DNA of 64,000 bases from a virus (IMGVR_UViG_3300036766_002288:64001-128000); one strand, 5' to 3'. Shown: positions 2,741 to 46,083, counted from the stretch's first letter. Notes: generated from the letters alone by a model not told the origin. Numbers and translations are program-made.

Positions 2741-2823
2741 GGTAGGTTCGGCATTGGCAAGCCAGCTTATTTCGAAAATAAGTAAACCGAAAGGTTTTGA
2801 GAATTCAACTTTCTCACCTACCG
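2741..2823 (+). tRNA. tRNA-Ser(CGA)
   Basis: GGTAGGT/ACCTACC acceptor, G73, CTTAT-TTCGAAA-ATAAG, long variable arm. Confidence 0.9.
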
Positions 2824-2852
2824 CTATACCTTAGTTGTACTGACTAAGGAAA

Positions 2853-2938
2853 GGGTGCTGTTCCACACGCTTGTCTGTAAAACAAGTGCCATTAATATGT
2901 GTGGTGGATGGCGATGGGTTCAAATCCTACGGTGCCCA
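2853..2938 (+). tRNA. Atypical D-armless tRNA-Tyr(GTA)-like RNA
   Basis: GGGTGCT/GGTGCCC acceptor (3 G.U), A73, GCTTGT-CTGTAAA-ACAAGT, TTCAAAT T-loop; only 9 nt in place of the D-arm. Confidence 0.65.
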
Positions 2939-2945
2939 CTTGAAA

Positions 2946-3030
2946 TGTAGCGTTTGGGCATTGGCAAGCCCCACTGACTGTAAATCAGCCGCCCTATGGG
3001 CATTGTAGATTCGACTCCTGCACGCTGCAC
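2946..3030 (+). tRNA. tRNA-Tyr(GTA)
   Basis: TGTAGCG/CGCTGCA acceptor, CTGA-CTGTAAA-TCAG, variable arm, TTCGACT T-loop. Confidence 0.85.
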
Positions 3031-3036
3031 TGACTT

Positions 3037-3125
3037 GGAGTAAATTGAAAGTGGCTATTCTAATCACTCCGCTAAAGTGACAGGTGGGGAAACCCGCCTT
3101 GTGAGTTCGACGCTCACTTACTCCG
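3037..3125 (+). tRNA. tRNA-Ser(GCT)
   Basis: GGAGTAA/TTACTCC, G73, TCACT-CCGCTAA-AGTGA (C at 33), long variable arm. Confidence 0.85.
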
Positions 3126-3190
3126 CTTCAATAAATTTTCCAAAAATTTATTGAACGGTTACTCTTGTATTATTATACAAGGAGTAATCT

Positions 3191-3742
3191 ATGAAAAATT
3201 TAGAAGTCGAAATTATGACATTAAGGGAAGATGGGCATTCTTACAACGCCATAGCAAAAAAACTAAATTGTTCTAAAGGCACAATTAGTTATTATTGCGG
3301 TGAAGGACAAAAACAAAAAAGTAAAACAAGGATTCAGAATAGAAGAAAAAATACTGTAATTTCGAAACGTGTTGAAAACTTTCAAATTGATAGAAAAATA
3401 AGAGACAAATCTGAAGATTTTCAACGGGAAAGAATAATTGTTAAGAGTAAAACTCGTTTAGGCAAACGGTCTTTGACATTTACTTGGAGAGATGTAATTG
3501 ATAAATTCGGATGGGAAACAATATGTTATCTAACTGGAAGGGCTATAAATTTAAGAGAGCCGAAAACTTATCAGTTTGACCATATACATCCTTACGGCAA
3601 AGGAGGAAGTTCAACTTTAGATAATTTAGGTATTCTTATTAAAGAAGTAAATCAAGCTAAGGCAGACATGACCGTTGAAGAATTTTTAAATCTATGTAAA
3701 GACGTTTTGGAATATAATGGCTATGAAGTAAAACGTTTGTAA
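3191..3742 (+). CDS. HNH homing endonuclease with N-terminal HTH
   Basis: HTH LREDGHSYNAIAKKLNCSKGTISYY; CYLTG...FDHIHP..KGG....NL......VNQAK. Confidence 0.85.
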   Translation: MKNLEVEIMTLREDGHSYNAIAKKLNCSKGTISYYCGEGQKQKSKTRIQNRRKNTVISKRVENFQIDRKIRDKSEDFQRERIIVKSKTRLGKRSLTFTWRDVIDKFGWETICYLTGRAINLREPKTYQFDHIHPYGKGGSSTLDNLGILIKEVNQAKADMTVEEFLNLCKDVLEYNGYEVKRL

Positions 3743-3760
3743 ATGGAAGCTTCCGCTTAT

Positions 3761-3834
3761 GGCACAGTAGGCAATTAGCAGACCACTTTCGCTTAAAACG
3801 AGAGATGCTGTCAGTGCAAATCTGACCTGTGCTA
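3761..3834 (+). tRNA. tRNA with Leu(TAA) anticodon, short variable loop
   Basis: GGCACAG/CTGTGCT, A73, CTTTCG-CTTAAAA-CGAGAG, T-loop TGCAAAT. Confidence 0.85.
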
Positions 3835-3838
3835 CTTT

Positions 3839-3912
3839 GGCGACGTAGGCAATTAGCAGACCACTTAGACTCAGACTCTGAGATGCTGTCAGTGCAAGTC
3901 TGACCGTCGCTA
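3839..3912 (+). tRNA. tRNA with Leu(CAG) anticodon, short variable loop
   Basis: GGCGACG/CGTCGCT, CTTAGA-CTCAGAC-TCTGAG, T-loop TGCAAGT. Confidence 0.85.
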
Positions 3913-3918
3913 CTTTTT

Positions 3919-3992
3919 GGCAACGTAGGCAATTAGCAGACCACTTTCTTTCAAACGGAGAGATGCTATGGGTGCGAGTCCCATCGTTGCTA
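3919..3992 (+). tRNA. tRNA with Leu(CAA) anticodon, short variable loop
   Basis: GGCAACG/CGTTGCT, CTTTCT-TTCAAAC-GGAGAG, T-loop TGCGAGT. Confidence 0.85.
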
Positions 3993-4175
3993 CTATGATA
4001 CCTAGACGTTTCAGAATACTATCTTCGTCCTCAATTATGACAGAATTAGGGATCAAAGACACCTATGGTGTTTTCTTTCCTGACTTTGGCACATTCATTA
4101 TAATGTCTGAAGAAAGAGGAATAGATGAGTTTGATGGTTGTCCCGAAGATGTTGAGTGGTTGGACTAGATAGTAT

Positions 4176-4922
4176 ATGGCTATTTTCCTAGAACATGTGA
4201 ATAAGCGAGATTTAAATAAAAGATTATTTGAAACTTTTGGCAAGTACAAAGTCTTCATTGTAGACGGCCAAGCCATTAGAAAACTTAATCTAACTGACCA
4301 TGAGTTTACTGATTCCGCCATCCATGCTACCTTTCCTAAATTAATACCAGATAAGGAAATATGGATAGATGATGTAATCAAACCGAATGAAAGATTTATA
4401 TTGATAAGTAATTTACTATCATTATACAAGTATTTAAGTAAAGAATCCTTGGACAAAGCTTATGATAAAGCATTGAAAAAAGAAAAGTCGATGAGGGAAA
4501 AGGTAGACAACGTAAGATTACATCCAGAAAAAACGAATGAAAGAGCGTCACCGAAGGTTTACAAGAGTCTATATGGTAAGATTGGAGATGTTAAGATTTG
4601 GTTGGTAGATGGGGAATACGTAAGAGATAAGTATAAGACAGATTATACCGAAGGTGGACACGATTACGTATACAAATGGATTCCACACAATGAAATTTGG
4701 ATTGAGTCCACAATGCATAAGTCTGAAATGCCTTTGATCGTTTTACATGAATTTGTGGAAAGAACATTGATGAAGACCAAGGGAATAGAGTATGATAAGG
4801 CACATACGATTGCATCGAAAGTGGAATTTGCAAAAGAAGATAAGTTTGATAGGAACGATGTTTTATCCATGACTGAGGATAAGGCATTGAAGATGGACGA
4901 GACGCGAGTGGTTAGCAACTGA
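4176..4922 (+). CDS. Hypothetical protein with internal domain duplication and HExxE motif
   Basis: (V/W)xVDGxxxR...IPxxEIWI occurs twice; LHEFVERTLM..H in the second copy. Confidence 0.75.
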   Translation: MAIFLEHVNKRDLNKRLFETFGKYKVFIVDGQAIRKLNLTDHEFTDSAIHATFPKLIPDKEIWIDDVIKPNERFILISNLLSLYKYLSKESLDKAYDKALKKEKSMREKVDNVRLHPEKTNERASPKVYKSLYGKIGDVKIWLVDGEYVRDKYKTDYTEGGHDYVYKWIPHNEIWIESTMHKSEMPLIVLHEFVERTLMKTKGIEYDKAHTIASKVEFAKEDKFDRNDVLSMTEDKALKMDETRVVSN

Positions 4923-4977
4923 TTTTGAAAATCAGGGGACCGAAAGGTTCTGTGGGTTCGAATCCCATCTCGATCCG
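4895..4977 (+). tRNA. tRNA-Ser(TGA), bulged acceptor stem; overlaps 3' end of upstream CDS
   Basis: GGACGAG/CTCG[A]TCC, G73, CTGAT-TTTGAAA-ATCAG, variable arm, TTCGAAT. Confidence 0.8.
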
Positions 4978-4980
4978 CTT

Positions 4981-5067
4981 GGAGCGTTGGCAGAGTGGCT
5001 GAATGCGCTAGTCTTGAAAACTAGAGTCCCCTCACGGGGACCGAGGGTTCAAATCCTTCACGCTCCG
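4981..5067 (+). tRNA. tRNA-Ser(TGA)
   Basis: Canonical: GGAGCGT/ACGCTCC, CTAGT-CTTGAAA-ACTAG, long variable arm. Confidence 0.95.
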
Positions 5068-5115
5068 TACAATAAAATTATCATAATTTTTATTGAACCC
5101 TAACTATGTTAGGGC

Positions 5116-5640
5116 ATGAAAGAACAAATATTAAAACTCCGTGCAGAAGGTTTGTCTTATAGGGAAATCTGTGCCCGATTAGACTGCTCAAAAAGTGTAG
5201 TGTCCTACCATTGTGGGGATGGACAAAAAGTAAAAACTAGGATTAGGGCACAAAAAAGACGAGGCAGGGCGGTTGTAGATAATAAAATTTATAGATTCAA
5301 AAATAAAAAAGCCTTGAGAGACAAAACGAACGATTTCCAACGAAGAGAAGGGGGCAAGCTTAAAATTAGAAAAATTATTTTTAATTATGAAGATGTAATG
5401 CAAAAATTTGGAGAAACCCCTATATGCTATTTAACGGGAAGAGAAATAAATTTAGAAGACACAAAAAACTATCACTTTGACCATATTATACCAGCAACGC
5501 GCGGCGGCTCAAACGATATAGATAATTTAGGACTAGCGTGTAAAGAAGCAAATAAAGCTAAGTCAGATATGACAATAAATGAGTTTATACAAATTTGTAA
5601 AGAAGTATTAGAGCATAATGGTTACAGGGTAATTAAGTAA
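5116..5640 (+). CDS. HNH homing endonuclease with HTH (paralog of 3191-3742)
   Basis: LRAEGLSYREICARLDCSKSVVSYH; CYLTG..FDHIIP..RGGSN...NL...CKEANKAK. Confidence 0.85.
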   Translation: MKEQILKLRAEGLSYREICARLDCSKSVVSYHCGDGQKVKTRIRAQKRRGRAVVDNKIYRFKNKKALRDKTNDFQRREGGKLKIRKIIFNYEDVMQKFGETPICYLTGREINLEDTKNYHFDHIIPATRGGSNDIDNLGLACKEANKAKSDMTINEFIQICKEVLEHNGYRVIK

Positions 5641-5642
5641 TT

Positions 5643-5729
5643 GGACGGTTTGGACATTGGCAAGTCCCCTTAGTTGGAAACTAAGTACACCCGAAAGGGT
5701 GTGTAGAGTTCGAATCTCTAACCGCTCCG
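5643..5729 (+). tRNA. tRNA-Ser(GGA), bulged acceptor stem
   Basis: GGACGGT/ACCG[C]TCC, G73, CTTAG-TTGGAAA-CTAAG, long variable arm. Confidence 0.85.
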
Positions 5730-5734
5730 CTTAT

Positions 5735-5811
5735 GGCGCAGTGATGCAACCTTCGGCAGACATTCTTGACTTAGAATCAAGATTATATGGGTTCGAATCC
5801 CATCTGCGCTA
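5735..5811 (+). tRNA. tRNA with Leu(TAG) anticodon, short variable loop
   Basis: GGCGCAG/CTGCGCT, A73, CTTGA-CTTAGAA-TCAAG, variable loop ATTAT. Confidence 0.85.
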
Positions 5812-5827
5812 GTATAATAGTGAAAAT

Positions 5828-5910
5828 GCGGTAGTGGCGGAACGGTATACGCGCTTGCTTGAGGTGCAAGTCCCTTAAGTGGGATGTGGGTTCGACTCCC
5901 ACCTACCGCA
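5828..5910 (+). tRNA. tRNA-Leu(GAG), class II
   Basis: GCGGTAG/CTACCGC, CTTGC-TTGAGGT-GCAAG, long variable arm. Confidence 0.95.
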
Positions 5911-5912
5911 CT

Positions 5913-6155
5913 ATGAAAACTACATATTATCGACAATGCAAATTGCAGAAAAAGAACACCTTCCAAACCAGCTATATTCCAGAAGAATTTGCTGTTATGA
6001 ATAAGATTATTAAACTACGTGACAACAACGTATGGGATGATGGCTGGAAGGTCATCGCAGTTAGTTCTTCACGGCACGCAGATGATAACCTGCCTGACTC
6101 TCATTCTTCAATTAAGGCACATCGTAGGGCAACTGGTGATTCACAAAGGAAATAA
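5913..6155 (+). CDS. Hypothetical protein
   Basis: ATG immediately after tRNA-Leu(GAG); the ORF-track N-terminal extension is tRNA sequence. Confidence 0.6.
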   Translation: MKTTYYRQCKLQKKNTFQTSYIPEEFAVMNKIIKLRDNNVWDDGWKVIAVSSSRHADDNLPDSHSSIKAHRRATGDSQRK

Positions 6156-6156
6156 T

Positions 6157-6441
6157 ATGTGTTTCATATATGATGAATACGCCGAACTTTACAAAGAAAA
6201 AGACGTAAAGGCAAAAAAAGAACACAAATGTTCTGAATGCGCCAGAACTATCTTTAAAAATGAGACGTATCAATATATTTTCACAATATTTCAAGGTGAT
6301 GCGACCACTACAAAGATTTGTTCAGATTGCAAGGATAAAAGACAAAAAATACATGATATAGAGATTAGTCATGGATGTAGCGAAAATGAATCTTGGCCTC
6401 CTTTAGGCGAACTAAGGGAATATTTACAACATTATGAATGA
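6157..6441 (+). CDS. Small Zn-finger protein
   Basis: KxRKxHxCxEC...CxDC pattern. Confidence 0.65.
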   Translation: MCFIYDEYAELYKEKDVKAKKEHKCSECARTIFKNETYQYIFTIFQGDATTTKICSDCKDKRQKIHDIEISHGCSENESWPPLGELREYLQHYE

Positions 6442-6462
6442 TATATACTGTAAAGGAGTATC

Positions 6463-6660
6463 ATGGACAAGCGTGAATACCGACAACTAAAAAGGACTTT
6501 AAAAAAAGAAGGCAACAAAAAGGCACGAAAAAAACTTAAAAATGACTTAAGAGACAATCCTGAAGAAACCCATTGGTCAGAGATAGATTACGGCAACTGT
6601 AAGACCGAAGATATGAAAAAATACAGCAGAGGACATGAAGATGAATATAGGTCTATTTGA
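6463..6660 (+). CDS. Small basic hypothetical protein
   Basis: GGAG SD, in operon order. Confidence 0.55.
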   Translation: MDKREYRQLKRTLKKEGNKKARKKLKNDLRDNPEETHWSEIDYGNCKTEDMKKYSRGHEDEYRSI

Positions 6661-7210
6661 TATGGACGGTAGCTTAGCTGATTATGAAGGTCAACTAAGG
6701 AAGGATTTGACCAAATGTCTTGGTGAAGAAGATTTGAAAAAGTTCGATGAGTTAGGCATGTGGAAAGCTGACGACCAAGAACCATTTAAATCACTCATTA
6801 GACTGATTAAGAATCAACCTTGTTGGTGGAAGAATCTCCCAGTAATGCAGAAAGGACTGGATATTTTCCACCTTGCTGTGCAGATTGGTTTTAAGAACCA
6901 TATTTTAACTAAGGGTCCAAAACATTATCCAAGGGCGTGGAAAGAAAAAGTTGAATGGTCTCAGCATTTATTTGGCAAGGATATTGACATTCATATAACA
7001 TCGGATAAAGGGTTAGTTTACGGCAGATTTTTATATGACGATTATCCTGATTATATGTTAAAATGGCTTGGGAGGCGTCCAAGGGGTTTGGGTATTATGC
7101 CAGTGAACAATTTCAATAAGGATTTTAACCATCCACAGGTAATTAAATGGGATGGAATAAACTATGATGAAGTGAAGGAAGCGTTGATAAAATGTTTCAA
7201 TAGGGGCTAA
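6641..7210 (+). CDS. 5'(3')-deoxyribonucleotidase (NT5C/HAD family)
   Basis: LFDMDGSLADY, WWxNLP, ILTKGP, EKVEW, DK..V.G..LYDD. Confidence 0.85.
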   Translation: MNIGLFDMDGSLADYEGQLRKDLTKCLGEEDLKKFDELGMWKADDQEPFKSLIRLIKNQPCWWKNLPVMQKGLDIFHLAVQIGFKNHILTKGPKHYPRAWKEKVEWSQHLFGKDIDIHITSDKGLVYGRFLYDDYPDYMLKWLGRRPRGLGIMPVNNFNKDFNHPQVIKWDGINYDEVKEALIKCFNRG

Positions 7211-7231
7211 GTGGCAAAACGGTATACGCAG
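7205..7231 (+). pseudogene. 5' fragment of a class II tRNA-Leu
   Basis: GGCTAAGTGGCAAAACGGTATACGCAG aligns with the 5' 27 nt of the tRNA at 7752, then diverges into A-rich spacer. Confidence 0.65.
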
Positions 7232-7266
7232 AAATAAAAATTAAAACGTGTTTACTATATTAGTTG

Positions 7267-7749
7267 ATGAGAAAAAGAAAATGGAATGACGAGCAATTAA
7301 TAGAAGCTGTTAAAACAAGCAAATCGGTGATGGAAGTATTGAAAAAAATTGGCTTAGGTTTAAGTGGTGGCTCCCATGCTTTGGTAAAAATGAGGATTAA
7401 ACATCTTAAAATTGATAATTCTCATTTTACAGGAAAAGGATGGTGCAGAGGGGAAAAGCACGAGGAATTCATTAAGCGAGTACTTCAGTATCCTTTAGAA
7501 CAAGTTTTAGTCAGAGATTCAACTTATCAGAACACACATGCCTTGAAAAAAAGACTTATAAAAGAAGGATTATTAATAAACGAATGTTGTAATTGTAAAC
7601 TAACCACATGGCTCAATGAGCCTATCAGTTTACAATTACATCATAAAGATGGAGATAGATGTAATAATTTGATTGGAAATCTATCAATACTATGTCCAAA
7701 TTGTCATAGTCAAACATCTACATTTGCAGGTAAGAGTAAAAGAAAATAA
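7267..7749 (+). CDS. HNH homing endonuclease (second subfamily)
   Basis: WNDEQLIEAV..S.S..EVLKK.GL; CCNC..W....LQLHHKDGD..NN...NL..LCPNCHSQT. Confidence 0.9.
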   Translation: MRKRKWNDEQLIEAVKTSKSVMEVLKKIGLGLSGGSHALVKMRIKHLKIDNSHFTGKGWCRGEKHEEFIKRVLQYPLEQVLVRDSTYQNTHALKKRLIKEGLLINECCNCKLTTWLNEPISLQLHHKDGDRCNNLIGNLSILCPNCHSQTSTFAGKSKRK

Positions 7750-7751
7750 AC

Positions 7752-7832
7752 GGCCAAGTGGCGGAATGGTATACGCGGCACACTCAAAATGTGTTGTCCT
7801 TGGGCATGTGGGTTCGACTCCCACCTTGGCTA
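7752..7832 (+). tRNA. tRNA-Leu(CAA), class II
   Basis: GGCCAAG/CTTGGCT, GCACA-CTCAAAA-TGTGT. Confidence 0.95.
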
Positions 7833-7993
7833 CTTATGAATACAAGTCTCAAATATCATGAAAAGATTTGGAAAGAATCCAGTTTTTTAACAAAGATTAA
7901 ATTTATTTTTTTTGGTTCGATCATATTCATGATCTTAATCGTTGGGTATTGTTGGGACAATGGAATTAAGAAGACATTGGATTTATTCAAAGA

Positions 7994-8419
7994 ATGAGCG
8001 TATTTCTATATAATTTTGAGCTTTTAACATGGATGCAATGGAAGATAAACTATCTTCCAGGCATTAGGGTTCAATGTGATTTCAGCAAGATTAATGCTAC
8101 ACCAGCGGTTCATATTGCAACTACGACAGATCAAATACGTTATCCTTGGTATGAAAATGGTGATTGGCGGGATGGGACTCCGTTGTGGTTCAAAGTTGGT
8201 GGTGGCCAGGTATTATGGCGGGGGCCTGCTGTAAGATATAAAGGTGTTTATTTAATTTTAGATGGGTGTCATAGGCTTCTTGACTTACAGCCAAGTATTG
8301 TTATAATGGATTATATTGATTTGAAGCAGGAAGAAATTTGTTATTTTAGTGACCTTTTAGGGATGTGGAACAATGACAATCCAAGAAGCGGCTGGTTTTT
8401 TGGTAAAACACCTGAATGA
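7994..8419 (+). CDS. Hypothetical protein, ParB/Srx-like motif
   Basis: YLILDGCHRL resembles the ParB-N DGHHR motif. Confidence 0.5.
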   Translation: MSVFLYNFELLTWMQWKINYLPGIRVQCDFSKINATPAVHIATTTDQIRYPWYENGDWRDGTPLWFKVGGGQVLWRGPAVRYKGVYLILDGCHRLLDLQPSIVIMDYIDLKQEEICYFSDLLGMWNNDNPRSGWFFGKTPE

Positions 8420-8561
8420 TCCAGAAACATTTATTGTTTCTGTTCGGGATAATGAAATCTTTGTAGACGTTAATTGGATTTATCGTAAGTATGAAATAGA
8501 TCAATTAGGCGGCAGTTGGAACGGGTTTCCAGTGAAAACAGGTCGCATAAGTTGTTGGTAA
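8373..8561 (+). CDS. Small hypothetical protein
   Basis: ORF in operon order. Confidence 0.5.
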   Translation: MTIQEAAGFLVKHLNDPETFIVSVRDNEIFVDVNWIYRKYEIDQLGGSWNGFPVKTGRISCW

Positions 8562-8779
8562 GCAGCAATCGTGGCGGGTAGTGAGCATAGCAGGGGCGAA
8601 AACGCAAATATTCCGCGAACGAAGGACTGGGCGAGTGAGTGGTGAGCGATCTTTCTTTATTCATGGATGAATAAGTGGCTTATTAGAGGCGAAGTTCATC
8701 TAACTATGACAACCAGAAAGAGCGGCGGATATTCTAATCGGCGGTATCAAAAGGCGTGACACCTGCATAGTCGATTGAT

Positions 8780-8861
8780 GGCCAAGTGGTGGAACGGTAT
8801 ACACAGCAGACTTAAAATCTGCCGCCCGTTGGGCTTGCGGGTTCAACTCCCGCCTTGGCCA
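8780..8861 (+). tRNA. tRNA-Leu(TAA), class II
   Basis: GGCCAAG/CTTGGCC, GCAGA-CTTAAAA-TCTGC. Confidence 0.95.
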
Positions 8862-9003
8862 CTATATGTCTTTCATAATAAATTTAACCTTTCTGCCAGT
8901 ATCAATATTTGCATACTTACTATTCCAAAAATGGTATAAACCAATTACAATTCCAGGCATACTATATCATTACATTGAAACTGGTAAATGGGGAAACTAG
9001 CCA

Positions 9004-9567
9004 ATGGAAAGAACTGAACTAACTGATGGCGGATACATATTGTATCAACCAGATTTCTATAATACAAAAATCGCAGATAATCTCTTCAACTTGTTACTAG
9101 ATGTTCCCTGGAAACAAGAGACATTTTCTTGGGGCAAATTTCCTAGACTCACATCTTATTACGCCGATGAAGGTGTAAAATATGAATATTCTGGAGTCAC
9201 CCACAAAGCTTTGGTATGGCCAGGAATTCTCTCAGCGGTAAAAGATAAAACTCAACAAGTTGTTGGTGAGAAATTTAACAGTCTATTGTTAAATTTCTAC
9301 AGGGATGGTGCGGATTCTATTGGCTGGCATTCAGATGATGAGAAAGAATTAGGAATAAATCCAATCATTGCATCTATTTCATTGGGTGCTGAAAGAACAT
9401 TCAATGTTAGGCACAAAAGAACTAAGGAAAAGTGGTCTATAGTTTTAAAGAATGGAAGTTTAATAGTTATGGGTGGTACAATGCAACATCATTGGCAGCA
9501 TTGTGTGCCAAAGACAACCAAGCCAGTTTTTGCAAGAATAAACCTTACTTTTAGGAACATTTTATGA
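9004..9567 (+). CDS. alkB: AlkB-family 2OG-Fe(II) dioxygenase (ALKBH2/3-like)
   Basis: PRLTSYY, NSLLLNFYRDGADSIGWHSDDE (HxD), HWQHCVPK, RINLTFR. Confidence 0.92.
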   Translation: MERTELTDGGYILYQPDFYNTKIADNLFNLLLDVPWKQETFSWGKFPRLTSYYADEGVKYEYSGVTHKALVWPGILSAVKDKTQQVVGEKFNSLLLNFYRDGADSIGWHSDDEKELGINPIIASISLGAERTFNVRHKRTKEKWSIVLKNGSLIVMGGTMQHHWQHCVPKTTKPVFARINLTFRNIL

Positions 9568-9962
9568 GTTCATACAAAGAAGCATGTCAAGTTACAAAAG
9601 AGACTGATAAGTTATTTACAGCATACGATTTTCATCCAAGTGATTTGGTTGTAATTGGTCATGAAGAAGGCACACAGTTAGTGTATAAAAGTGCCTTCTT
9701 AAAAGAATGGAAAGATTACATCTTCGTTTTCACAGAGCATCATGGGACTTTAGTTTACCATAAATACGATTTATCTTATTATAATCAATACACTACCAAG
9801 GAAATAGAAAAGCTAAAATTCACATTTCATAAGGATATATGTCAAGACTGCAAAATTGAATTCAAAGTTGAAGATTTAAGGTATGGCTATCATCCAGAAC
9901 GATATGAGGAAATCAGCATTCTTTGTAATGGTTGCTATGAAAAGGCTTGTGACTTACCCTGA
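9564..9962 (+). CDS. Hypothetical protein with C-terminal CxxC..CxxC
   Basis: ORF with Zn-ribbon-like cysteines. Confidence 0.6.
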   Translation: MSSYKEACQVTKETDKLFTAYDFHPSDLVVIGHEEGTQLVYKSAFLKEWKDYIFVFTEHHGTLVYHKYDLSYYNQYTTKEIEKLKFTFHKDICQDCKIEFKVEDLRYGYHPERYEEISILCNGCYEKACDLP

Positions 9963-12900
9963 TACCTTTTTAATATAAATGCCATTCGTTGCTAGCTCAA
10001 AAGTTAAATACTCAATATATTCTTTAGCTGATTTTAGATTCCAACCCAATGCTTCTCTAGCTAGTTTTATTGCTTGAATCTTATCTCCCTGTTCTATTTT
10101 GCTCTCCATGTCCATTATTGTTTTTTTGTCTAAAAACGGCTTGCCAGGCATATCATGGTAGTGCTGAACCATTATTTCATGTGCTTTTTCTTGAGATAAA
10201 GGAGAAATGGCATAAATTGTTTTAGCATCAAAATATTTTTGTATTGCTAATTCTTTTAAATAGGTTTTTTTGATATCAAACAATTGATTTGGACTATAAT
10301 TAGCACCTAATGCGGCGTTGACCTTAGTTAAAATATCTTCAATTGGATAACTAGGGTTGTAATATTTAGTAGAAATAATTGCCCTCGCTACTTTCAAATC
10401 CATTGGGAAAAGGAATGCCTTCAATGGATTAAAGCTGTTTTTCAAAGAATCAATAATTTTAGCACCTGTATCTATGGGAGCAGGAGCAGTTGCTAGTTCC
10501 ATATCATCTGCTTCGATAGCATAACTACCGCCACTAGGAAACTTAACACTATAACCATGTTCAAAATCTGATTGTGGAATTTTGTAAACAATTGTTCCAA
10601 CCATACCTTTGTGATAACCATTTATGATCTTAACTGGATCGCCATTTTTGAATTCTTTTTTAGGTTTTGAAGACAACTCAATATTCACCACCTTAATAGG
10701 TGCCTCGCCACCATCATCAAACTTAATATGCACCATGTTATCTTTGTAAGCGCCTGTATAAGTTTTAGTTATATGACCAGTCAGACCTGCATACATTCCA
10801 TCTTTGACTTTTACAAAGTCTCCGACTTTAAAATCCTTTTTAGACCCCGCCGCCACTGGTGCTACTAATTGCAGATTGCCTGCATGTACCAAATATTCAT
10901 ATCCAGCACCGCCAGACTTTATTTTATAAAGATTATCACCTACAATTTTCTCTTTAACGACGCCAGTTATTCCATTATGTTCACCGCCAGTAACTTTAAC
11001 GGTTGCCCCAATTTCAAACGTTTTTGACTGACCCTTCTTGCCTGTTATTTCGAACTGATTTGGTGCTAAAATTTGATCTTGTTTGCCACCGAAGGCAATG
11101 TCTAAAGCAATAGTATAATTTGTTCCGTGGTTCACCTTAACGGTGCCTGTAAAACCTGCAAAACTACCATCTATTACCTTAACAATGTCCCCCACTTCTG
11201 GGGTGGGCGATTTATCTAATTCGATATCATTTTTATAGAAAAGATACGGGGAATCGGATGACCCTAATGTAACCATATAATTCCCATTTTCAGTCTTGTG
11301 CTTAAATTTACCTTTTTTGCCTGTGTGCAAACCATTTTTAACTTTAATAGGATCGCCTGCCTTAAAATCTTCTTTTTCCTTAACAGAATCATCCTTCTTC
11401 AAATCCCCCTGAGAGAAATACAAATTTTGCTTTTTACTATCAAGGGGACTTTCTACGGCGACAATCCACACACCTTCAGTTGAAGTTGAGGTTACAATCT
11501 CACCTTTCTTGCCCTTGTAATCACCATTAGTTATGATTACAGGGTCGCCTACTTTATATGATGGTCTTGTTTTTTCATCCTTTTGCAAATCGTAGTTTGA
11601 ATAGGGAATTAGGTTTACAAGACCAAGATCGACTTGATAGGGATATGGGTCTTCGGCGGCTTTTATATTTTTGATAAAACCTTTCATGCCTTTATGACTT
11701 CCATATTTGATAGTAACATGGTCGCCTACTTTAAGGCCCAGAAGCGACTTGCCACCGCTAGCGGAATCGTCTTTCTTGAAGTAATCTGAGGAATACCATT
11801 GTTCATCGGCTTCCCCACCATGCGGCATCGTTACAAGAACACTCCATGAATGCCCATTATAACTTTTGAGAACACCTTTTGAGCCGTTATAAGTGCCATG
11901 AGTGATGATTACATGGTCCCCTACCTTATTCCCTTTTTCGTCTGGGAAGCTGCTGGCTTTCTTTTCAACAACTTCAAATCTATGTCTCTTAAAAGCCTTT
12001 GTAGGCTTATCTGCGAACTCGACGTTGAAATAAGGAAAATCGTATTTGTAAATCTTATCTATGACGGTTCCAGTTTGGCCAACATATCCACTAGAACCAC
12101 CTATAATCTTAACCTTGTCACCAATATCTACATCAGAAGGATGTGGGGGCTGATTAATTGGGGTTCCTGTGTATGTCGGCTGTGGAACAGGTTTACCCTT
12201 ATTAACCTTGGCCCAATATTCTTGATTAACTTGTCCCATAGAGTATGGGGCTGGTCCATAATTGCCAGTTACAGGGCTTGATACTGATTGATTTATAATA
12301 TGTTGACTAGCATATTGTTCTGGGGTAATATCTTTAGGCTTACTTTCCCAATAAGTATCATTAGGATAGTTTTTTTCATGTTCAGCTTTCTTTTTCTCAT
12401 ATTGAGATTGCTGCATCTGATTATATATCTCTGCCTTTTTCTTTAGAATTTCAGGCCAATCTTTCTCAAAGTCCAAAAAAGTTTTGCCTGTCTTGAGCTT
12501 AATACCAATTTTGGCCACTTCCCGCATTGAAGGACTAATATGCTCAAACATTTCGTGGGGAGAAACTAGATCACGTTTATGGTCAAGTGATTTCTGAATC
12601 CAATCATACTTATTATCTTTCCTATAACTTTTTAATTTAGTGAATACACTACCAGTATTATGTTGTAAGTCGTAAACATGGTCAATGTAGGCGATTATCT
12701 TATTTGGCGTTTCGGCATCATTTAGGTGTGTCCAACCATCAGCAATACCTCCCCAGGCTTTGCCACCATATGAACTACCCCATTTTGCATTATAAAATAG
12801 CCAACTGGCTAGCTTTGCCCATTCTTCATCTGTTCCACCTGCATGTTTCAGAGCTTTGTATGAAGTGGTATAACCATCATCACTGTTTTTAGCTGTAGTC

Positions 12901-13454
12901 GGTATATGGATACGATCCATTATTTCTGCTGTTTCTGGATTTTGTAAATTTCTTAAAGCGAGTGTGTAATTCCTTAGTAAACTTGCTTCTTTTGGACCGA
13001 GTTCCTTTTTCACTCTTTCAATTAAAAGTTTAGGCTTATTTCTTTCACTATCATATAAGTGTCTTAATTCGGCGGAAATAGAAAACATAACTGCTTCCAA
13101 TAGTTCCTTTTTAAGGGCTGGCAGTAGTTTATTGCCTACTTCATATAGAGCATGATAGAATTTGTCCTCTACGGTCATGGACATATCACCATAATGTCTC
13201 GTATCTGGTGGAAGTCCTTTTTCTTCTCTTTCTTTATTCTGAAGTGCATTAGCTTTTTCTGTATCTTCTCCACCAAAATCCATTGGTTTTAGATACATGT
13301 GAATACCAGGCGGAAGAAGATATTCGAGCATGTAAAAGTCGTACATTTGCTGTTGTCTATCTTCTGGGACATGGTATGTCCATGAACCAAATACACCTTC
13401 TAGTATTGGATTATAATCTTTTTTATTTAACCAATTAGCGAACTTGTCTAGCAT
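9954..13454 (-). CDS. Giant protein: unknown N-terminal domain + 9 KOW repeats + C-terminal L7/L12-CTD-like motif
   Basis: Nine (F/K)xxGDxVxIxxGxxxGxxG repeats; C-terminal GDKIQAIKLAREALGWNLKSAKEYIE; likely start MLDKFANWL with TAAATA 5 nt upstream. Confidence 0.8.
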   Translation of the reverse strand: MLDKFANWLNKKDYNPILEGVFGSWTYHVPEDRQQQMYDFYMLEYLLPPGIHMYLKPMDFGGEDTEKANALQNKEREEKGLPPDTRHYGDMSMTVEDKFYHALYEVGNKLLPALKKELLEAVMFSISAELRHLYDSERNKPKLLIERVKKELGPKEASLLRNYTLALRNLQNPETAEIMDRIHIPTTAKNSDDGYTTSYKALKHAGGTDEEWAKLASWLFYNAKWGSSYGGKAWGGIADGWTHLNDAETPNKIIAYIDHVYDLQHNTGSVFTKLKSYRKDNKYDWIQKSLDHKRDLVSPHEMFEHISPSMREVAKIGIKLKTGKTFLDFEKDWPEILKKKAEIYNQMQQSQYEKKKAEHEKNYPNDTYWESKPKDITPEQYASQHIINQSVSSPVTGNYGPAPYSMGQVNQEYWAKVNKGKPVPQPTYTGTPINQPPHPSDVDIGDKVKIIGGSSGYVGQTGTVIDKIYKYDFPYFNVEFADKPTKAFKRHRFEVVEKKASSFPDEKGNKVGDHVIITHGTYNGSKGVLKSYNGHSWSVLVTMPHGGEADEQWYSSDYFKKDDSASGGKSLLGLKVGDHVTIKYGSHKGMKGFIKNIKAAEDPYPYQVDLGLVNLIPYSNYDLQKDEKTRPSYKVGDPVIITNGDYKGKKGEIVTSTSTEGVWIVAVESPLDSKKQNLYFSQGDLKKDDSVKEKEDFKAGDPIKVKNGLHTGKKGKFKHKTENGNYMVTLGSSDSPYLFYKNDIELDKSPTPEVGDIVKVIDGSFAGFTGTVKVNHGTNYTIALDIAFGGKQDQILAPNQFEITGKKGQSKTFEIGATVKVTGGEHNGITGVVKEKIVGDNLYKIKSGGAGYEYLVHAGNLQLVAPVAAGSKKDFKVGDFVKVKDGMYAGLTGHITKTYTGAYKDNMVHIKFDDGGEAPIKVVNIELSSKPKKEFKNGDPVKIINGYHKGMVGTIVYKIPQSDFEHGYSVKFPSGGSYAIEADDMELATAPAPIDTGAKIIDSLKNSFNPLKAFLFPMDLKVARAIISTKYYNPSYPIEDILTKVNAALGANYSPNQLFDIKKTYLKELAIQKYFDAKTIYAISPLSQEKAHEIMVQHYHDMPGKPFLDKKTIMDMESKIEQGDKIQAIKLAREALGWNLKSAKEYIEYLTFELATNGIYIKKVSG

Positions 13455-13483
13455 TGTAATATTTATGTTCTTTTCTCTCAATT

Positions 13484-14347
13484 TTGTTGGTAAATACTAA
13501 AATGAGTGTGTCACTTGATGAGTTAGTTAATTGTGATGGGCAATTAGTCTATGCTATTGATGAAGAAGAGAACGTCTACATAGGTATTTTGTATTATAAA
13601 CCAGAGAACGGTGAATTTTCGGTTGAAATTTGGGAAGATTCGTGCTGCGCGATGGCAATAATGACTCCAGACGACCTTATTTACTTAATTTGTAATAATC
13701 CTAGCGGAACAGTAATAACATTCTTTGACCCAGACTTGTTTGATTTAAATACGACTTGGACAGTTCCTGATGGTATTTTTTCTGTATTTGTCGAATGCTG
13801 GGGCGCGGGTGGATATGGCAATACTAATATTAGTGGTGCATTTGGAGGTGGTGGAGGTGGTGGGGGTGCTTACGCTGCTAGTATAGTGTCAGTAATGCCT
13901 GGAGATGTTTATAGTATAACGATTACAAATACTAATTGTAATCCTAACTTCGTTTCAACCATATTTGGGTCAAATTTAGTTACTGCTGCTGCGGGGAGTT
14001 GTGCTAATGCTCTTGGCATAGGTGGGGCAGGCGGGCAAGTGGCAGATAGTATAGGCACTACTAGATTTGCTGGTGGAAATGGTGGGGATGGGGACACATC
14101 TGTTGGAGGTAGTGGCGGCGGTGGTGGGGCATGTGCAGGGCCAGGTGGACCAGGAAATGCTGGGGCAATTGTCACTGGTGGTGTCGGAGATGGTGATTTA
14201 GCAGGCAGTGGCGGGGCAGGAGCGGCATTGCCTGCAACTCCTGCCGATTTTGGTGGACTTTATGGTGGAGGTGGAGGTGGTGGAGCAAGTGGTGGAGCAA
14301 TAGAAGGAGCAAATGGACCCCCAGGAATTATTCGTTTAACATATTGA
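13484..14347 (+). CDS. Glycine-rich-domain virion-type protein
   Basis: WTVPDGIFSVFVECWGAGG..GGGGGAYA..GGGGG..G..GIIRLTY module. Confidence 0.7.
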   Translation: MLVNTKMSVSLDELVNCDGQLVYAIDEEENVYIGILYYKPENGEFSVEIWEDSCCAMAIMTPDDLIYLICNNPSGTVITFFDPDLFDLNTTWTVPDGIFSVFVECWGAGGYGNTNISGAFGGGGGGGGAYAASIVSVMPGDVYSITITNTNCNPNFVSTIFGSNLVTAAAGSCANALGIGGAGGQVADSIGTTRFAGGNGGDGDTSVGGSGGGGGACAGPGGPGNAGAIVTGGVGDGDLAGSGGAGAALPATPADFGGLYGGGGGGGASGGAIEGANGPPGIIRLTY

Positions 14348-15005: not shown

Positions 15006-15341
15006 ATGAGTCGATACGGATTTGATTTAGATGGAACTCTTGATGTTCCTTCCATAGCACAACTCGCCAATGATTTATATGACGCAGGACACGAAATATA
15101 CATAGTCACAGGTGGGTTTGGCGATCATGGAGAATGGACAATTTCTGAGCGCGAAAAGAAATTAGCCAGACTTGGTGTTAAATACACAGAAATCATTCGT
15201 TGTTTAAAACCCTCTTTTGAAGAAATTGGTAAAGAGAAAGGTCGTATTTGCAAAGAAAGAAAAATTTCTTTGTTATTTGACGACTCAGAAACTTATATCC
15301 AGCAATCTAAAGGGGCGGTCCAATGTCTGAAAGTGATCTAA
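15006..15341 (+). CDS. HAD-superfamily small hydrolase
   Basis: GFDLDGTL, IVTGG, KG..C......LFDDS. Confidence 0.7.
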   Translation: MSRYGFDLDGTLDVPSIAQLANDLYDAGHEIYIVTGGFGDHGEWTISEREKKLARLGVKYTEIIRCLKPSFEEIGKEKGRICKERKISLLFDDSETYIQQSKGAVQCLKVI

Positions 15342-15553
15342 AACAACTTATTCTTGAAAAAGGCGGCGTAGCTGCCATTAAACATTACCGTGAAATCAAT
15401 AAATGCAATTTAAAAGAAGCAGTCCAAGCAATAGATTCACTTGGCCCATTGCCACGTATCTTTAAATCAACTACTCCATGTCCAGATTGTGGCAAATTGC
15501 TTAGAACAGATTTAGCAAAACAATGTTTTGAATGTGGAAAGGATTGGCATTAA
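15323..15553 (+). CDS. L7/L12-CTD-like motif + Zn ribbon protein
   Basis: AAIKHYREINKCNLKEAVQAID; CPDCG..LRT..AKQCFECG. Confidence 0.6.
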   Translation: MSESDLKQLILEKGGVAAIKHYREINKCNLKEAVQAIDSLGPLPRIFKSTTPCPDCGKLLRTDLAKQCFECGKDWH

Positions 15554-18237: not shown

Positions 18238-21200
18238 TTAGGTCACGCATTTTCTAGTTATAGAAAGAATAATTTCCAAACTTACATCAGATACGCCACC
18301 TTTAAACGCCAGTCTAGTTATAGCTATAGTCTTAAACACTTGCGTTGTTCCTGCCTTAACTGATAAAACGGCATTTGGATTATCATTTATTTTAACTGAA
18401 ACGTCGTCCGTGCCATTGTTATTAATTTGGGTAAATTTAGAATACCCGCAATCTATAACAATGAAATTCGAAGCAAATGTATCAGTCGTCAAAACCATAT
18501 AGTCAGCATACACACGCTCAGGTGGTGGTTTACTTAGTATGTCCACAAACGCAATGGATGGCGGAAGTGCAAGTGTCGTAAAGTTGTCCCAATAATCACA
18601 ATCGGCAAACGTTGTATTGTCCACAGCTTCACGATTGATAAGATTAGCACCCGCATTATACATCGTTCTTTGCTTACTTGGCTGGAATATCTTACCTGTA
18701 ATCGGGTTTATGTCCAAATAACCCTGTTCTCCAACACGATTTAAATGTACATTATATAATCCACAAACAATTTCATTTGGAGTAGGCGGTGGAGGAGGTG
18801 GTGGAGAAGAAGCTGGATAAAATATCCTTACTAATCCACTGCCACCATTGCCACCATTGCCACCTCCACCACCTCCACCACCTCCACCTGCTGGAAAGCC
18901 ACTAAAACCATCTCCACCAGAGCCACTACCGCCTGGGCCACTAGGATAACCGCCACCGCTTATACCAGGACTTGTTCCTGAACCATCTCCCCCTGAACCT
19001 AATAAACCAGCACTGCCACCGCCCCCACCGCCAGCACCCGTTATACCATCGGCACCATTTCCACCACCGTTAGCTATATCTCCTATACCAGTGGGAGCGC
19101 CAGGAGCGCCAGAAGTTCCACTGGCATTACCGCCAGCTGGGGCAGTAAGTAATGGTGTAATACCATCTGTATCATAAAATACGGTAGTGCCACTTGAGGC
19201 AACAGTGATAAAATAAACTTCGCCAGGAACTACATCAATAGTAATTTGTGAAAAAGCACCACCACCGCCACCGCCACCGCCTGGACCACTTAAACCTGCA
19301 CCGCCAAGGCCACCATTGCCAGGAGTTCCGCTACCACCACCATTAGTGCCACCTGCGCCAGGAGAATCAGTAGTAGAATTACCACCGTTTCCACCAGCAC
19401 CAGCACCACCAGCGGCACCGCCACCGCCTGCACCACCACTACTGGTAGCACTACCGCCTGCACCACCACTATAATTAACATCTCCTGTACCATCAGCTGC
19501 GGAGCCACCTAGTCCCCCTGCCCCGCCGACTGCACCATTTCCCCCAAAAGCTTGGGCTAATGGAGTAATTCCGTTTGTATCAAAAAATGTAGAAGTACCG
19601 CCCGCGCCGCCTACGGTTCCGCCAGCACCTACTTGAATATTATAATCTTGGGAGCCTTCTAAGCCTACATCAAATGTCGTTGTAGCATACGCACCACCGC
19701 CACCACCGCCACCTGCTGCTCCACCACCGCCCCCACCGATAACTTCTACAGTTATGGTCCAGCTGCCAGGAGGTATAGTAACTATATTAGAGCCTGGAGT
19801 TGTAAAAGTAAAAATAATAGGTGGGTCAAACCCATCAGTATAAGAAACAATCACAATGCCAGTAGCCCCATTGCCAGAAGTTCCGCCAAAAGCAGCACCA
19901 CCGCCACCACCACCAACAACATTACCATTAGCGCCATCACTGCTACCTCCACCACTGCCAGAGCTACCAACACCGCCTGGACCAGTTCCTTGAACAATTA
20001 TGGAATTAATTCCAGGAGGAACAGTCCAAGTAGTTGAACTAACAATATTATTAAAATTTTGCGGGTTACTATTATTGGTTGTTATTTGTAATATGCCTTG
20101 TGCCCCAAGACCACCTGCCTGTATTGTGAATGGCGCGCCACCACCACCACCACCACCACCACCTGGGATGACGCCTGGAAGACCTATGGCCCCAGCAAGT
20201 CCACCACCGCCACCAGCACCAGGAATAAGACTACCGCCACCAACGGCGCTTCCGCCGTCGCCGCCAGCACCAGTATCCCCAGCGATACCAACGTTACCAC
20301 TAATGCCTGAAAACACTGAGGAATTACCTATTGAATAATATGCATTACCACCAGCACCAGGCAACGCCATTTGAGCTTGACTACCAACCGCAGCATAAAG
20401 TTTAAAATCGTTTAAAGTTATTGTTGGCAAATATGGTTCAGGAACATCAACAAATGCAGTTCCCCCAGAAGGTTGTGCAGGAACATACACTGAGTATGTT
20501 CTACCTGGGATAACAGATAGTATTGATTCAGCATAAGCTCCACCACCGCCGCCACCGCCGCCACTATTATTGTCACCACTAGCTCCACTACCACCATGAC
20601 CTATCGCTTGTATAGTAGCACCAGTTTGGTTTGCACCAGGAGTCCAAGTACGGGAACCTACCTGAGTAAACACCAATGGATTAGTAGGGTCAGCATAAGT
20701 TAATCTAATGAAACCTGGACCGCCAAGGACGCCGAGACCTGTAATACCGCCACCACCTCCACCACCGCCAAAACTATATCCATCTATATTAGCTGGGGGA
20801 AATCCGCCATTTAGACTTCCTGCTCCACCATTACCACCATTTTGGCCAGGATCGCCACCATATAAACCACCAATATTGTTAGTAGTAGTATGACCAATGC
20901 CAACTTCACCAGCAGAACCGCCACCACCTCCACCAATGCCGCCACTTTGATTAGCACCACCGCCGCCGTCGTATGTTATATCGCCTATAGAACTTGAGGC
21001 TAAACCGCCACCACCTCCTATAGTGCCAGCGGCATTAACACCAGCATCTGCTTTAACTAATTCATCAAGACCATTAGTATCATAGAAAATACTATTTGGA
21101 TTGCCACCAAACTGTCCAATATGAACAAAGTATGTTGCCCCCGAAGTTACAGCGACAGTTTTAGCAGCATAGGCACCGCCACCGCCGCCGCCACCACCAG

Positions 21201-22821: not shown

Positions 22822-23056
22822 AAGGCTATTTATGGCAGCAATAACGTAAAATGGTGTTGATTTATTTTATTATTTGTGTTAACATTCAATGGGAACAAAA
22901 ATCCCAAGGCTTGGTTTCGCCACAAAAATTAATGCAAAAATTTTTGTAATCGAAAATCATAGTTTTCCAAGCAAATGACCACCAAATTCTGTATTTATCT
23001 GAATAGGCCCAGCCGAATGTCATGAATGTGAACATATATTATTTAGGTAAAATTTA

Positions 23057-26491: not shown

Positions 26492-26509
26492 TATCCCTAA
26501 ATATCTGGT

Positions 26510-26839: not shown

Positions 26840-27350
26840 GTGGTTACAAAGCCACCACACAAGTTTTCTCAATCAAAACATGCTGAACATTACCGCTATG
26901 GGCAGTACCACAATTTTGGTACTACTACTTCTAGCGGGGTTATCATATACTGGATTTATCTTAAAAGATTGGAAACAGGCCCTTTATGGCGGCATTTGCG
27001 TATTGCTTAGTCTTGGCACAGTGGAAATTGGCAAATATGCGATTCAAAGAGAACGACCTATCGCTCATGATAAAGTGATTAGTACGCCCAATTCTCCTAG
27101 TATGCCTAGTGGTCACTCTGCTATGTCTATGTCCGTCTTAGGTATTTTGGCCTTAATGGTGCAGAAGTCAAGATTTTGGGTTATTGTTAGTATATTGGCG
27201 TCTTTGTTGATCGGGTTTAGCAGAATATATTTAGGGGTTCATTGGTTTACGGATGTATTAGTAGGTTGGTTTATTGGCGCAGTTTATTTCTATATATTTT
27301 ACAGTTTGGCCATAAATAATAGGTATGCTAGAGTTCAAGCAATGGATTGA
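26820..27350 (+). CDS. PAP2-family membrane phosphatase
   Basis: K...RERP, SMPSGHS, SRIYLGVHWFTDV. Confidence 0.9.
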   Translation: MDKLIFEWLQSHHTSFLNQNMLNITAMGSTTILVLLLLAGLSYTGFILKDWKQALYGGICVLLSLGTVEIGKYAIQRERPIAHDKVISTPNSPSMPSGHSAMSMSVLGILALMVQKSRFWVIVSILASLLIGFSRIYLGVHWFTDVLVGWFIGAVYFYIFYSLAINNRYARVQAMD

Positions 27351-37407: not shown

Positions 37408-38009
37408 AATACGTGAGCGTAGACATAGAAACAACAGGTTTAAATCATGAGAAATGCACCATACTTGAATTCGCAGCCGTAGTTGATGACTTAAATTTGC
37501 AAGAGCCAATTGAAAAATTACCTAAGTTTCAGACTTATGTAAGACAAGAATACTACAGTGGTGAACCATATGCTCTTGCGATGCACTGTGAAAAATTTCA
37601 AAAGATATCTAATTGGCGTGCAAATGGAATTGACGTTTGTTATCCTGAGACACTCATCAAGAAATTTCATACTTTCTTGATAACATTCGGTTATCAAGAA
37701 ACTGGCAGAACTCATTCATCTTTAAAAGATGGTTATATTAAAATAAATGTTGCTGGTAAAAACTTCGCTAATTTTGACAACAGATTTATAGAGAAACTAC
37801 CAGATTATGATAAAATGATTAAAGTTGGACATAGGATTTTAGACCCTGTAATGCTCTATTTTGATCCTAAGAAAGATATTGACCATCTGCCAAGTATGGC
37901 TGAATGCATGGAACGTGCAGGAATCAGTGGTGAAGTTCCACATTCAGCATTAGAAGATGCTGTTTTGGTTGTTAGATTACTAAGACATAAATTTCCTATT
38001 AAAGAGTAA
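37404..38009 (+). CDS. DEDDh 3'-5' exonuclease
   Basis: VSVDIETTGL, GKNFANFD..F, HSALEDA. Confidence 0.88.
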   Translation: MKYVSVDIETTGLNHEKCTILEFAAVVDDLNLQEPIEKLPKFQTYVRQEYYSGEPYALAMHCEKFQKISNWRANGIDVCYPETLIKKFHTFLITFGYQETGRTHSSLKDGYIKINVAGKNFANFDNRFIEKLPDYDKMIKVGHRILDPVMLYFDPKKDIDHLPSMAECMERAGISGEVPHSALEDAVLVVRLLRHKFPIKE

Positions 38010-41684: not shown

Positions 41685-41749
41685 ATAATGTATTTAGCCG
41701 CCCTAAATACAATATGGACAAAAGTTCGGGAGTTTGGTAGAATTCTGAT

Positions 41750-46025: not shown

Positions 46026-46083
46026 AAAGCATTTTCATTACCAATTATTTCATAAAACTTACTATATAATTATAGGAGGCTTT

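Follow-up and report, generated by a model that had tools for sequence, protein, structure and literature searches.

A nine-KOW protein of a ~590-kb phage with a capsid-targeting-like tag and a bL12-like hairpin, read as a possible packaged effector

The question raised by the gene at 9954-13454 (minus strand) of IMGVR_UViG_3300036766_002288:64001-128000, a viral stretch of 64,000 nucleotides (here, the window; 38% G+C), is what a phage would use a protein for that joins a large unannotated domain to nine KOW motifs and an end resembling ribosomal protein bL12 (L7/L12). We found this KOW protein has four parts: an N-terminal tag of ~19 residues, an all-helical domain (the N-domain), nine KOW units and a helical C-terminus with a bL12-like hairpin. 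An earlier note on this DNA had given the order as an unfamiliar N-domain, a linker, nine KOW motifs and a helical end like the C-terminal domain (CTD) of L12, and this is essentially right. For the whole chain, we tentatively favor a packaged and injected modular effector that would be tethered to the ribosome, its factors or RNA polymerase, and we hold this as possible rather than probable.

A single open frame spans 9954-13481 on the minus strand in the list of open reading frames (ORFs) and would give 1175 residues if started at TTG. The ATG at 13454 is backed by the N-termini of homologues (MLSKFVNWL and similar) and by a database copy (P0002), an identical protein of 1166 residues from a 590,099-bp contig; PF26011 is the precomputed annotation of this copy. 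The carrier genome is that of a huge phage, with a contig of about 590 kb. In the N-domain, identity with the two orthologues P0003 and P0004 is 63-65%, and LR756511, a 595-kb uncultured phage, is the only relative in the phage database. The genome-wide counts given below cover a 187-kb piece of the genome (261 genes, ~37% complete).

We found the TAAATA element, which had been called late-type, is present before the KOW gene and is positionally enriched in the 187-kb piece. It starts 10-13 nt before the ATG in 12 of the 261 genes, compared with ~0.5 at each other upstream position, and within the 20 nt upstream of genes this hexamer is enriched 8-fold. Written as TA[AT]ATA, the box marks 23 genes at the same distance from the ATG. 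A Shine-Dalgarno (SD) site is missing in 22 of these, whereas 112 of the 238 genes outside the box class have one (P 2e-5 for box-SD avoidance); strong AAGGAG SD sites serve ~43% of genes in this piece. In its gene class, the TA[AT]ATA box takes the place of the SD. No further position is conserved around the box, which is possibly a -10-type promoter element of SD-less, leaderless or near-leaderless genes, since a -10-like hexamer with 4-7 nt to the ATG fits what such a start needs. The same box is also found before seven distinct IMG/VR homologues and before the LR756511 orthologue (a 949-residue paralogue), in the latter 11 nt from the ATG, and sigma-like ORFs are present in the 187-kb piece. 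Further boxes lie in the window at 13485-13490 (+), 22827-22832 (-), 26493-26498 (+), 27308-27313 (+), 38002-38007 (+) and 41691-41696 (-). The KOW gene and its divergent neighbor have a common 47-bp intergenic region with two back-to-back boxes.

The F..WL N-terminus, also pointed out before, occupies residues 5-9, and about half of the close homologues retain it. About half of them also show F..W[LIVM] and then [LI]-x-E ahead of the folded core, and the tag is absent where the N-domain is internal. Among the 261 proteins, 18 begin with F-[polar]-x-[FWY]-hydrophobic at residues 2-9, compared with 2.0 expected (P 7e-12); MLNFKEWFVE and MLEFKQWIEA are typical N-termini of this class. The capsid-targeting sequence (CTS) of T4 IPIII has its targeting residues at 4 and 7 and its processing residues at 8 and 10, and T4 gp21 cleaves after L/I-X-E (PMC9026906). 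We found the tag class of this genome agrees with the register of the IPIII CTS. The box and the CTS-like tag are found together in 11 genes (odds ratio 30, Fisher P 4e-9), the KOW gene has both, and its orthologues keep both. In addition, LR756511 encodes a T4 gp21-type prohead protease (Peptidase_S77, 95.9 bits). The earlier description of the protein as late-expressed and head-packaged stands in part: the sequence marks are statistically real in this genome, but late timing is not fixed, as the isocitrate lyase gene is boxed too. Judged from these marks, it is close to an even call whether the KOW protein would be packaged in the phage head.

For the N-domain, AlphaFold2 gave a confident, all-helical model (m948f62bc4537; predicted local distance difference test (pLDDT), 84.5; predicted template modeling score (pTM), 0.80; 33-sequence alignment). 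It is folded from residue ~25 to ~420, and the first 20 residues are of low confidence (pLDDT 45-50). The domain had been put at ~330 residues of unknown kind; it is unmatched and larger, since the fold extends to about residue 420. The motifs YGGKAWGGIA (residues 229-238) and IDHVYDLQHNTGSVFTK (residues 257-273), both quoted in the earlier note, are the best-conserved parts of the family. Across 36 very diverged members, D39, F40, Y41, E129, W234, D258, Y261, Q264, H265, K273, W285 and K293 are invariant. The polar invariants (D39, E129, D258, Q264, H265, K273 and K293) suggest an active site.

The sole family match of the N-domain is to an unnamed phage family, phrog_20946 (residues 211-299, E 9.3e-10). 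Pfam and NCBIfam gave zero matches in residues 1-440, profile searches against PDB sequences gave nothing or only designed helical repeats (E 0.43), a wide VIA-align search gave only generic helical bundles (best Z 4.9), and a search of the ESM Atlas gave nothing usable. Modeling yielded an all-helical domain but not a match to a known fold (Foldseek against PDB, best E 0.37). In BFVD, four unnamed viral proteins of 326-478 residues match the N-domain with probability 1.0 and are probably solo members of its family; searching the shorter homologues and the named cluster members gave no informative name. Several enzyme classes were considered for the N-domain: a lysozyme or transglycosylase, for which the fold searches gave no match, and a PLA2-like enzyme, an HD or ferritin-like (D/E)xxH metal site and HEPN, each without tool support.

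We found the N-domain family is widespread. A word-based search with residues 1-450 returned 33 database proteins of 646-1926 residues, and a scan of IMG/VR returned 54 loci. Many IMG/VR proteins of 285-1,200 residues carry the domain at the N-terminus, and it is also buried at offsets of 1,300-2,650 residues in ORFs of 2,700-3,900 residues on phage contigs of 35-65 kb. Pfam matches in these giants are sparse (GNAT, YdcK beta-solenoid repeats and a weak PcfJ-like match), phrog_20946 is the sole PHROG match in three of the giant homologues, and in two cases the ORF immediately upstream of the giant has a match to phrog_2534, whose annotation reads 'released from the phage upon host infection'. 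Among cultivated phages, solo genes of ~345 residues occur in SIO-2-like Vibrio siphophages, Rhodobacter phage RcZahn and others, by matches that are weak but motif-specific (SYGGxAW...HNTGxVFNK). The solo gene, VPEG_00062 in Vibrio phage SIO-2 and gp10 in RcZahn, lies between terminase and portal in both; a limited literature search found no usable virion proteomics for SIO-2. Few other members of the family carry KOW. The family is spread over phage contigs from 20 kb to >500 kb, and these occurrences, buried in giants or alone, suggest the N-domain is a mobile effector-type module. Since giants with GNAT and solo genes near packaging genes resemble polyvalent proteins, this context suggests, by analogy, virion delivery of the N-domain family, which is not proof for the gene at 9954-13454. 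The giants (on contigs L009, L016, L020, L026, L028, L030, L034, L035 and others) are otherwise nearly without annotation, and those inspected sit near a primase-like gene. One 123,835-bp IMG/VR contig with two N-domain homologues (L033) carries an ARAGORN transfer-messenger RNA gene at 1969-2315 with the tag AEEYSYAMAA.

The Pro/Gln linker that had been described between the N-domain and the repeats is present as a Pro-rich stretch of limited extent (Table 1). We found the nine KOW motifs both by direct motif listing and with a repeat hidden Markov model (nine units, residues 440-993). For the whole protein, Pfam KOW (PF00467) scores 66.5 bits, threefold its gathering score of 22.3 (E 1.2e-18); the best single unit has 27.1 bits in the genome scan, and Pfam KOW4_SPT5 and SH3_KIN17_C also match the array. 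All nine units align on the core G-D-x-V-x-(I/V)-x-x-G-x-x-x-G-x-x-G, and their pairwise identity is 16-37%. Hence, the units are old duplications kept by selection. The same repeat model gave counts of nine for the KOW protein and, for its two closest orthologues, eight (P0003) and four (P0004). Hence, the array expands and contracts. In NCBIfam, the units are closest to the KOW parts of UpxY, NusG and RfaH, with scores far below the cut-offs. An NGN domain is not among the Pfam matches at E up to 1, and the NCBIfam matches cover KOW parts only. Hence, the protein is not a member of the NusG/Spt5 family. Another protein, P0181 (1198 residues, 120-kb metagenomic contig; named NusG by its source), has an unrelated, unannotated N-region of ~350 residues and at least eight KOW units. 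Long KOW arrays on unrelated heads thus recur in large phage-like contigs, which suggests that they are a reusable carrier or targeting module in large phages.

The C-terminal region (residues 985-1166) is conserved in P0003, P0004, P0014, P0079 and P0096, and its AlphaFold2 model (mcabf00f39183) is all helical, with zero beta-strands and a pLDDT of 78. When the last 66 residues were searched against PDB with phmmer, 7 of the 9 matches were bL12 (best E 0.024). Residues 1109-1150 align to bL12 residues 49-90 of E. coli and 54-94 of T. maritima. In the E. coli protein, residues 49-90 are beta1, alpha4 and alpha5, and the conserved K, I, K, R, L, K and K positions of the bL12 hairpin are kept in the tail. 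Alpha4 and alpha5 of bL12 form the surface that contacts EF-G, EF-Tu, IF2 and RF3. Of the L7/L12-CTD-like end that had been proposed, the similarity to the alpha4-alpha5 hairpin holds, and a full bL12 CTD does not (below the Pfam cut-off, no strands). The tail is a predicted mini-module derived from the bL12 CTD, not a bL12 CTD itself.

Only the hairpin matches bL12; the N-terminal dimerization and uL10-binding domain of bL12, with its hinge, was not detected. In the fold search with the C-domain, the top-scoring rows were chains of eukaryotic 60S proteins (Z 7.1-7.7) and a RepB' helical bundle (Z 7.2, a weak match for helical subdomain A), scores that lie below the tool's meaningful level for helical models; bL12 was not among the top rows, an absence that alone decides nothing. 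The modeling bore out a helix set but not the strands of the bL12 fold. In phmmer searches, the hairpin has its nearest sequence relatives in hundreds of small proteins, where it is repeated 2-5 times in tandem and scores above the Pfam cut-off. A tblastn search with the last 66 residues, made to look for similarity to cultivated phages, returned LR756511 only. LR756511 (L001) splits the architecture across adjacent paralogues at 6001-8850 and 8862-10946: one (P0010, 949 residues) has the N-domain and KOW-like repeats, and the other (P0014, 694 residues) has the N-domain and a C-terminal bL12-hairpin domain. In the window, a 76-residue ORF 2 kb away (15323-15553, plus strand) carries a weaker copy of the bL12 hairpin, LILEKGGVAAIKHYREINKCNLKEAVQAIDSL, followed by a CxxC...CxxC zinc-ribbon-like end; it scores 14.2 bits against Pfam Ribosomal_L12 and matches the tail of the KOW protein pairwise with E 0.001.

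On these parts, the packaged effector would work as follows. Transcription from the SD-replacing TAAATA box would give a message that is probably leaderless or near-leaderless and belongs to a phage-specific program. Like the capsid-targeting sequence of T4, the tag would steer the protein into the prohead, and a T4 gp21-type protease would then cut it off after I-L-E19. The mature protein would enter a new cell together with the DNA, where the flexible KOW array and the bL12-like hairpin may tether the N-domain to the ribosome, its factors or RNA polymerase, and the tethered effector domain would act on its target there. In its logic, this resembles T4 Alt, an enzyme that is packaged and injected and that modifies translation factors and RNA polymerase.

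Several results weigh against this. The tag of the KOW protein (MLDKFANWL...PILE/G) fits less tightly than the canonical class: it has its aromatics at 5 and 8, not at 4 and 7, and its first L/I-x-E is at 17-19; a prohead protease was not found in the 187-kb piece, which is ~37% of the genome. The box also precedes the isocitrate lyase gene and other non-structural genes. Hence, its temporal class is not fixed. The box-bearing genes are not recognizably structural, the weak tail matches of a 1527-residue Gly-rich protein being only a hint, and the KOW gene itself lies outside the structural/head module, with tRNAs, a 2OG-Fe(II) oxygenase, Gly-rich proteins and metabolic genes as neighbors. The N-domain is without detectable similarity to any enzyme in Pfam and in the PDB sequence and fold searches. 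KOW / SH3-like barrels can also be mere spacers. At the C-terminus, Pfam Ribosomal_L12 (PF00542) scores 17.1-20.7 bits, below its cut-off of 25.9, over profile positions 10-37 of 67 only, and the three-strand alpha/beta fold of the bL12 CTD is not seen in the AlphaFold2 model of residues 985-1166.

The same box and tag would equally mark a purely structural internal head protein, packaged by its tag, whose KOW barrels bind and organize nucleic acid in the capsid, in the manner of the inner-body or internal proteins known from giant phages, and which has no enzymatic action after injection. KOW domains bind nucleic acid, a unit number that varies from nine to eight to four fits a spacer or avidity module, and giant phages package many processed head proteins (PMC9026906). 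However, polar residues of the N-domain that are invariant over very wide divergence fit an active effector better, as does the reuse of this domain in giants alongside GNAT enzymes, and we consider the structural alternative unlikely.

Similarly unlikely, in our judgment, is a cytoplasmic factor that is produced in the course of infection, is never packaged and works on the ribosome or at the transcription-translation interface, where it might favor phage messages or aid phage tRNAs. The KOW units are of the NusG type, a bL12 hairpin is present, a second small hairpin ORF lies 2 kb away, and viral bL12 domains have been proposed as interfaces for translation factors (Mizuno et al. 2019, PMC6375957). 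The gene also adjoins a large tRNA array. It had been placed antisense inside the tRNA region; we found ten ARAGORN tRNAs on the plus strand (2741-8862), opposite to the gene, but all on one side of it. This adjacency is not conserved at the homologue loci, which counts against this reading. The protein also has neither an NGN domain nor the bL12 N-terminal domain for stalk binding, and its N-terminal tag and box class point to packaging instead. The bridging of transcription and translation by an injected factor, supposed in the earlier note, would likewise be the work of a protein without NGN and without a full bL12 CTD.

A decoy for defense sensors had been suggested in the earlier note. 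Such a decoy, whose NusG-like and bL12-like surfaces would absorb host defense sensors or toxins watching those proteins, has the presence of such mimicking surfaces as its sole support. We consider it highly improbable: a defense-related family was not detected, the large conserved N-domain would be left unexplained, and nine KOW copies diverged to 16-37% identity mimic no single host surface. The least probable is a virion-associated cell-wall enzyme, with an N-terminal hydrolase and SH3-like wall-binding repeats, for although wall-degrading domains are frequent, in other phages, in giant virion proteins of the kind that host the N-domain (PMC5512222) and the repeats would form SH3-like barrels, their matches are to KOW families and not to SH3b, and neither a lysozyme nor a transglycosylase was matched when the fold of the N-domain was searched.

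Table 1. Coordinates of the KOW gene and of the parts of its product in the window
Feature	Position (strand)	Residues	Description	Basis
Complete coding sequence	9954..13454 (-)	1-1166	1166 residues from ATG at 13454; stop codon 9954-9956	ORF list and translation
TAAATA box	13460..13465 (-)		11 nt upstream of ATG, without Shine-Dalgarno site	Sequence
N-terminal peptide	13398..13454 (-)	1-19	MLDKFANWLNKKDYNPILE; T4 capsid-targeting-like, ends I-L-E (possible prohead-protease site)	
All-helical N-domain	12195..13397 (-)	about 20-420	phrog_20946-type; conserved core about 25-330	AlphaFold2 and alignment
Pro-rich linker	12129..12194 (-)	about 421-442	pLDDT 47-60	
Nine KOW repeats	10485..12128 (-)	443-990	Starts near 443, 510, 575, 634, 698, 753, 814, 876 and 936	
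Helical subdomain A	10224..10469 (-)	996-1077	pLDDT about 90	AlphaFold2
Three-helix unit with bL12-CTD-like alpha4-alpha5 hairpin	9987..10127 (-)	1110-1156	Core GDKIQAIKLAREALGWNLKSAKEYIEY	Pfam and phmmer

Around the KOW gene, a plus-strand ORF (9564-9962) overlaps its 3' end by 9 nt, tail to tail, and two genes downstream lies an AlkB-like member of the family 2OG-FeII_Oxy_2 (9004-9567, plus strand, E 2.6e-35). Gly_rich_2 (PF21722) proteins are encoded at 18238-22821 (minus strand, 1527 residues, four stretches) and at 13502-14347 (plus strand, 281 residues, below cut-off). Both of these genes are preceded by a TAAATA box, and the 1527-residue protein has weak tail-fibre-assembly and minor-tail PHROG matches. 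Metabolic genes at 29171-30349, 38017-39306, 39783-40910 and 51257-52957 encode a glutathionylspermidine synthase, an isocitrate lyase (boxed), a class V fructose-1,6-bisphosphatase and a glutamine-dependent NAD synthase, and nearby are a LAGLIDADG endonuclease (46003-47154) and a family A DNA polymerase (55865-57142).

An injected KOW protein that engaged ribosomes or RNA polymerase would be a concrete early take-over effector of a huge phage, and KOW arrays and the bL12 hairpin would then be seen to be reused as targeting devices. Its helical N-domain represents a widespread family that has no annotation and no solved structure. The signature of box and tag would also allow probable virion cargo to be listed from sequence alone in uncultured megaphages. 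A broader proposal, which we regard as speculative and rather unlikely in full, is that this ~590-kb megaphage runs a T4-like system of late box and capsid-targeting tag that would load a dozen or more unrelated proteins into its head, one cargo being a hitherto undescribed ribosome- or RNA polymerase-directed effector (enzyme-like fold, nine KOW units and bL12 hairpin) that would reprogram translation or transcription from injection onward.

Among known systems, the closest for delivery are T4 Alt and IPI-IPIII, which have a short N-terminal aromatic/hydrophobic tag and then an [L/I]-x-E site, a pattern that the putative tag of the KOW protein resembles. A TATAAATA-like box stands before their genes and the KOW gene alike, and the targets of Alt are RNA polymerase and translation factors (PMC5512222; PMC9026906). 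The T4 proteins take the route of head packaging and injection, which for the KOW protein is presumed by analogy. However, the KOW protein is without sequence or fold similarity to Alt, its tag is longer and shifted by one residue, and its box lies 10-13 nt from the ATG, where it replaces the SD, an arrangement that differs from that of T4.

For the C-terminus, bL12 domains embedded in larger phage proteins were reported for FSL SP-076, a phage of Salmonella, and Erwinia phage Ea9-2; ribosome preparations from E. coli yielded a peptide of one such protein, although the tagged protein could not serve to purify ribosomes (PMC6375957). As in the KOW protein, a bL12-CTD-like segment is found there within a much larger phage polypeptide. 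The two differ in that the FSL SP-076 and Ea9-2 proteins have 418-724 residues, belong to N4-like phages and reach bL12 HHpred probabilities of ~96-97%, whereas the KOW protein has the alpha4-alpha5 hairpin only, below the cut-off; tblastn with its tail gave no similarity to these phages. The closest relatives of the hairpin (E 1e-17 to 1e-9), represented by P0036, P0038 and P0082, have 2-5 tandem 'KIEAIK.VRE.TGWGLKE.K.YV' units with the same W-G-L-K variant. In contrast to the KOW protein, proteins of this type are small, mostly membrane-anchored and bacterial, and have neither KOW nor the N-domain. Two of these three begin with a transmembrane helix, and automatic pipelines label some tandem-hairpin proteins 'ribosomal protein L7/L12'.

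The KOW units score best against the UpxY, NusG, RfaH and Spt5 KOW families, and the tandem array recalls eukaryotic Spt5, but the KOW protein is without NGN and its array sits on an unrelated N-domain. Spt5 carries 5-7 KOW copies, and the nine here exceed that. Polyvalent proteins are large, injected and multi-domain; GNAT is one of the enzymatic domains they include, and their domains are also found on their own near packaging genes (Iyer et al. 2017, PMC5512222). The KOW protein is likewise large and joins an effector-like domain to nucleic-acid-binding modules, and relatives of its N-domain occur in proteins of the 3,000-residue class with GNAT, a domain type listed there. However, it has one candidate catalytic domain and a repeat array rather than several disparate enzymes, and its gene does not adjoin packaging genes; KOW and bL12 are unmentioned in the main text of PMC5512222. 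CTS cargo, embedded bL12 segments, KOW proteins and polyvalent giants each have precedent, but no precedent is known for their combination, nor for the nine-unit array, the unannotated N-domain family and the SD-replacing box tied to the tag.

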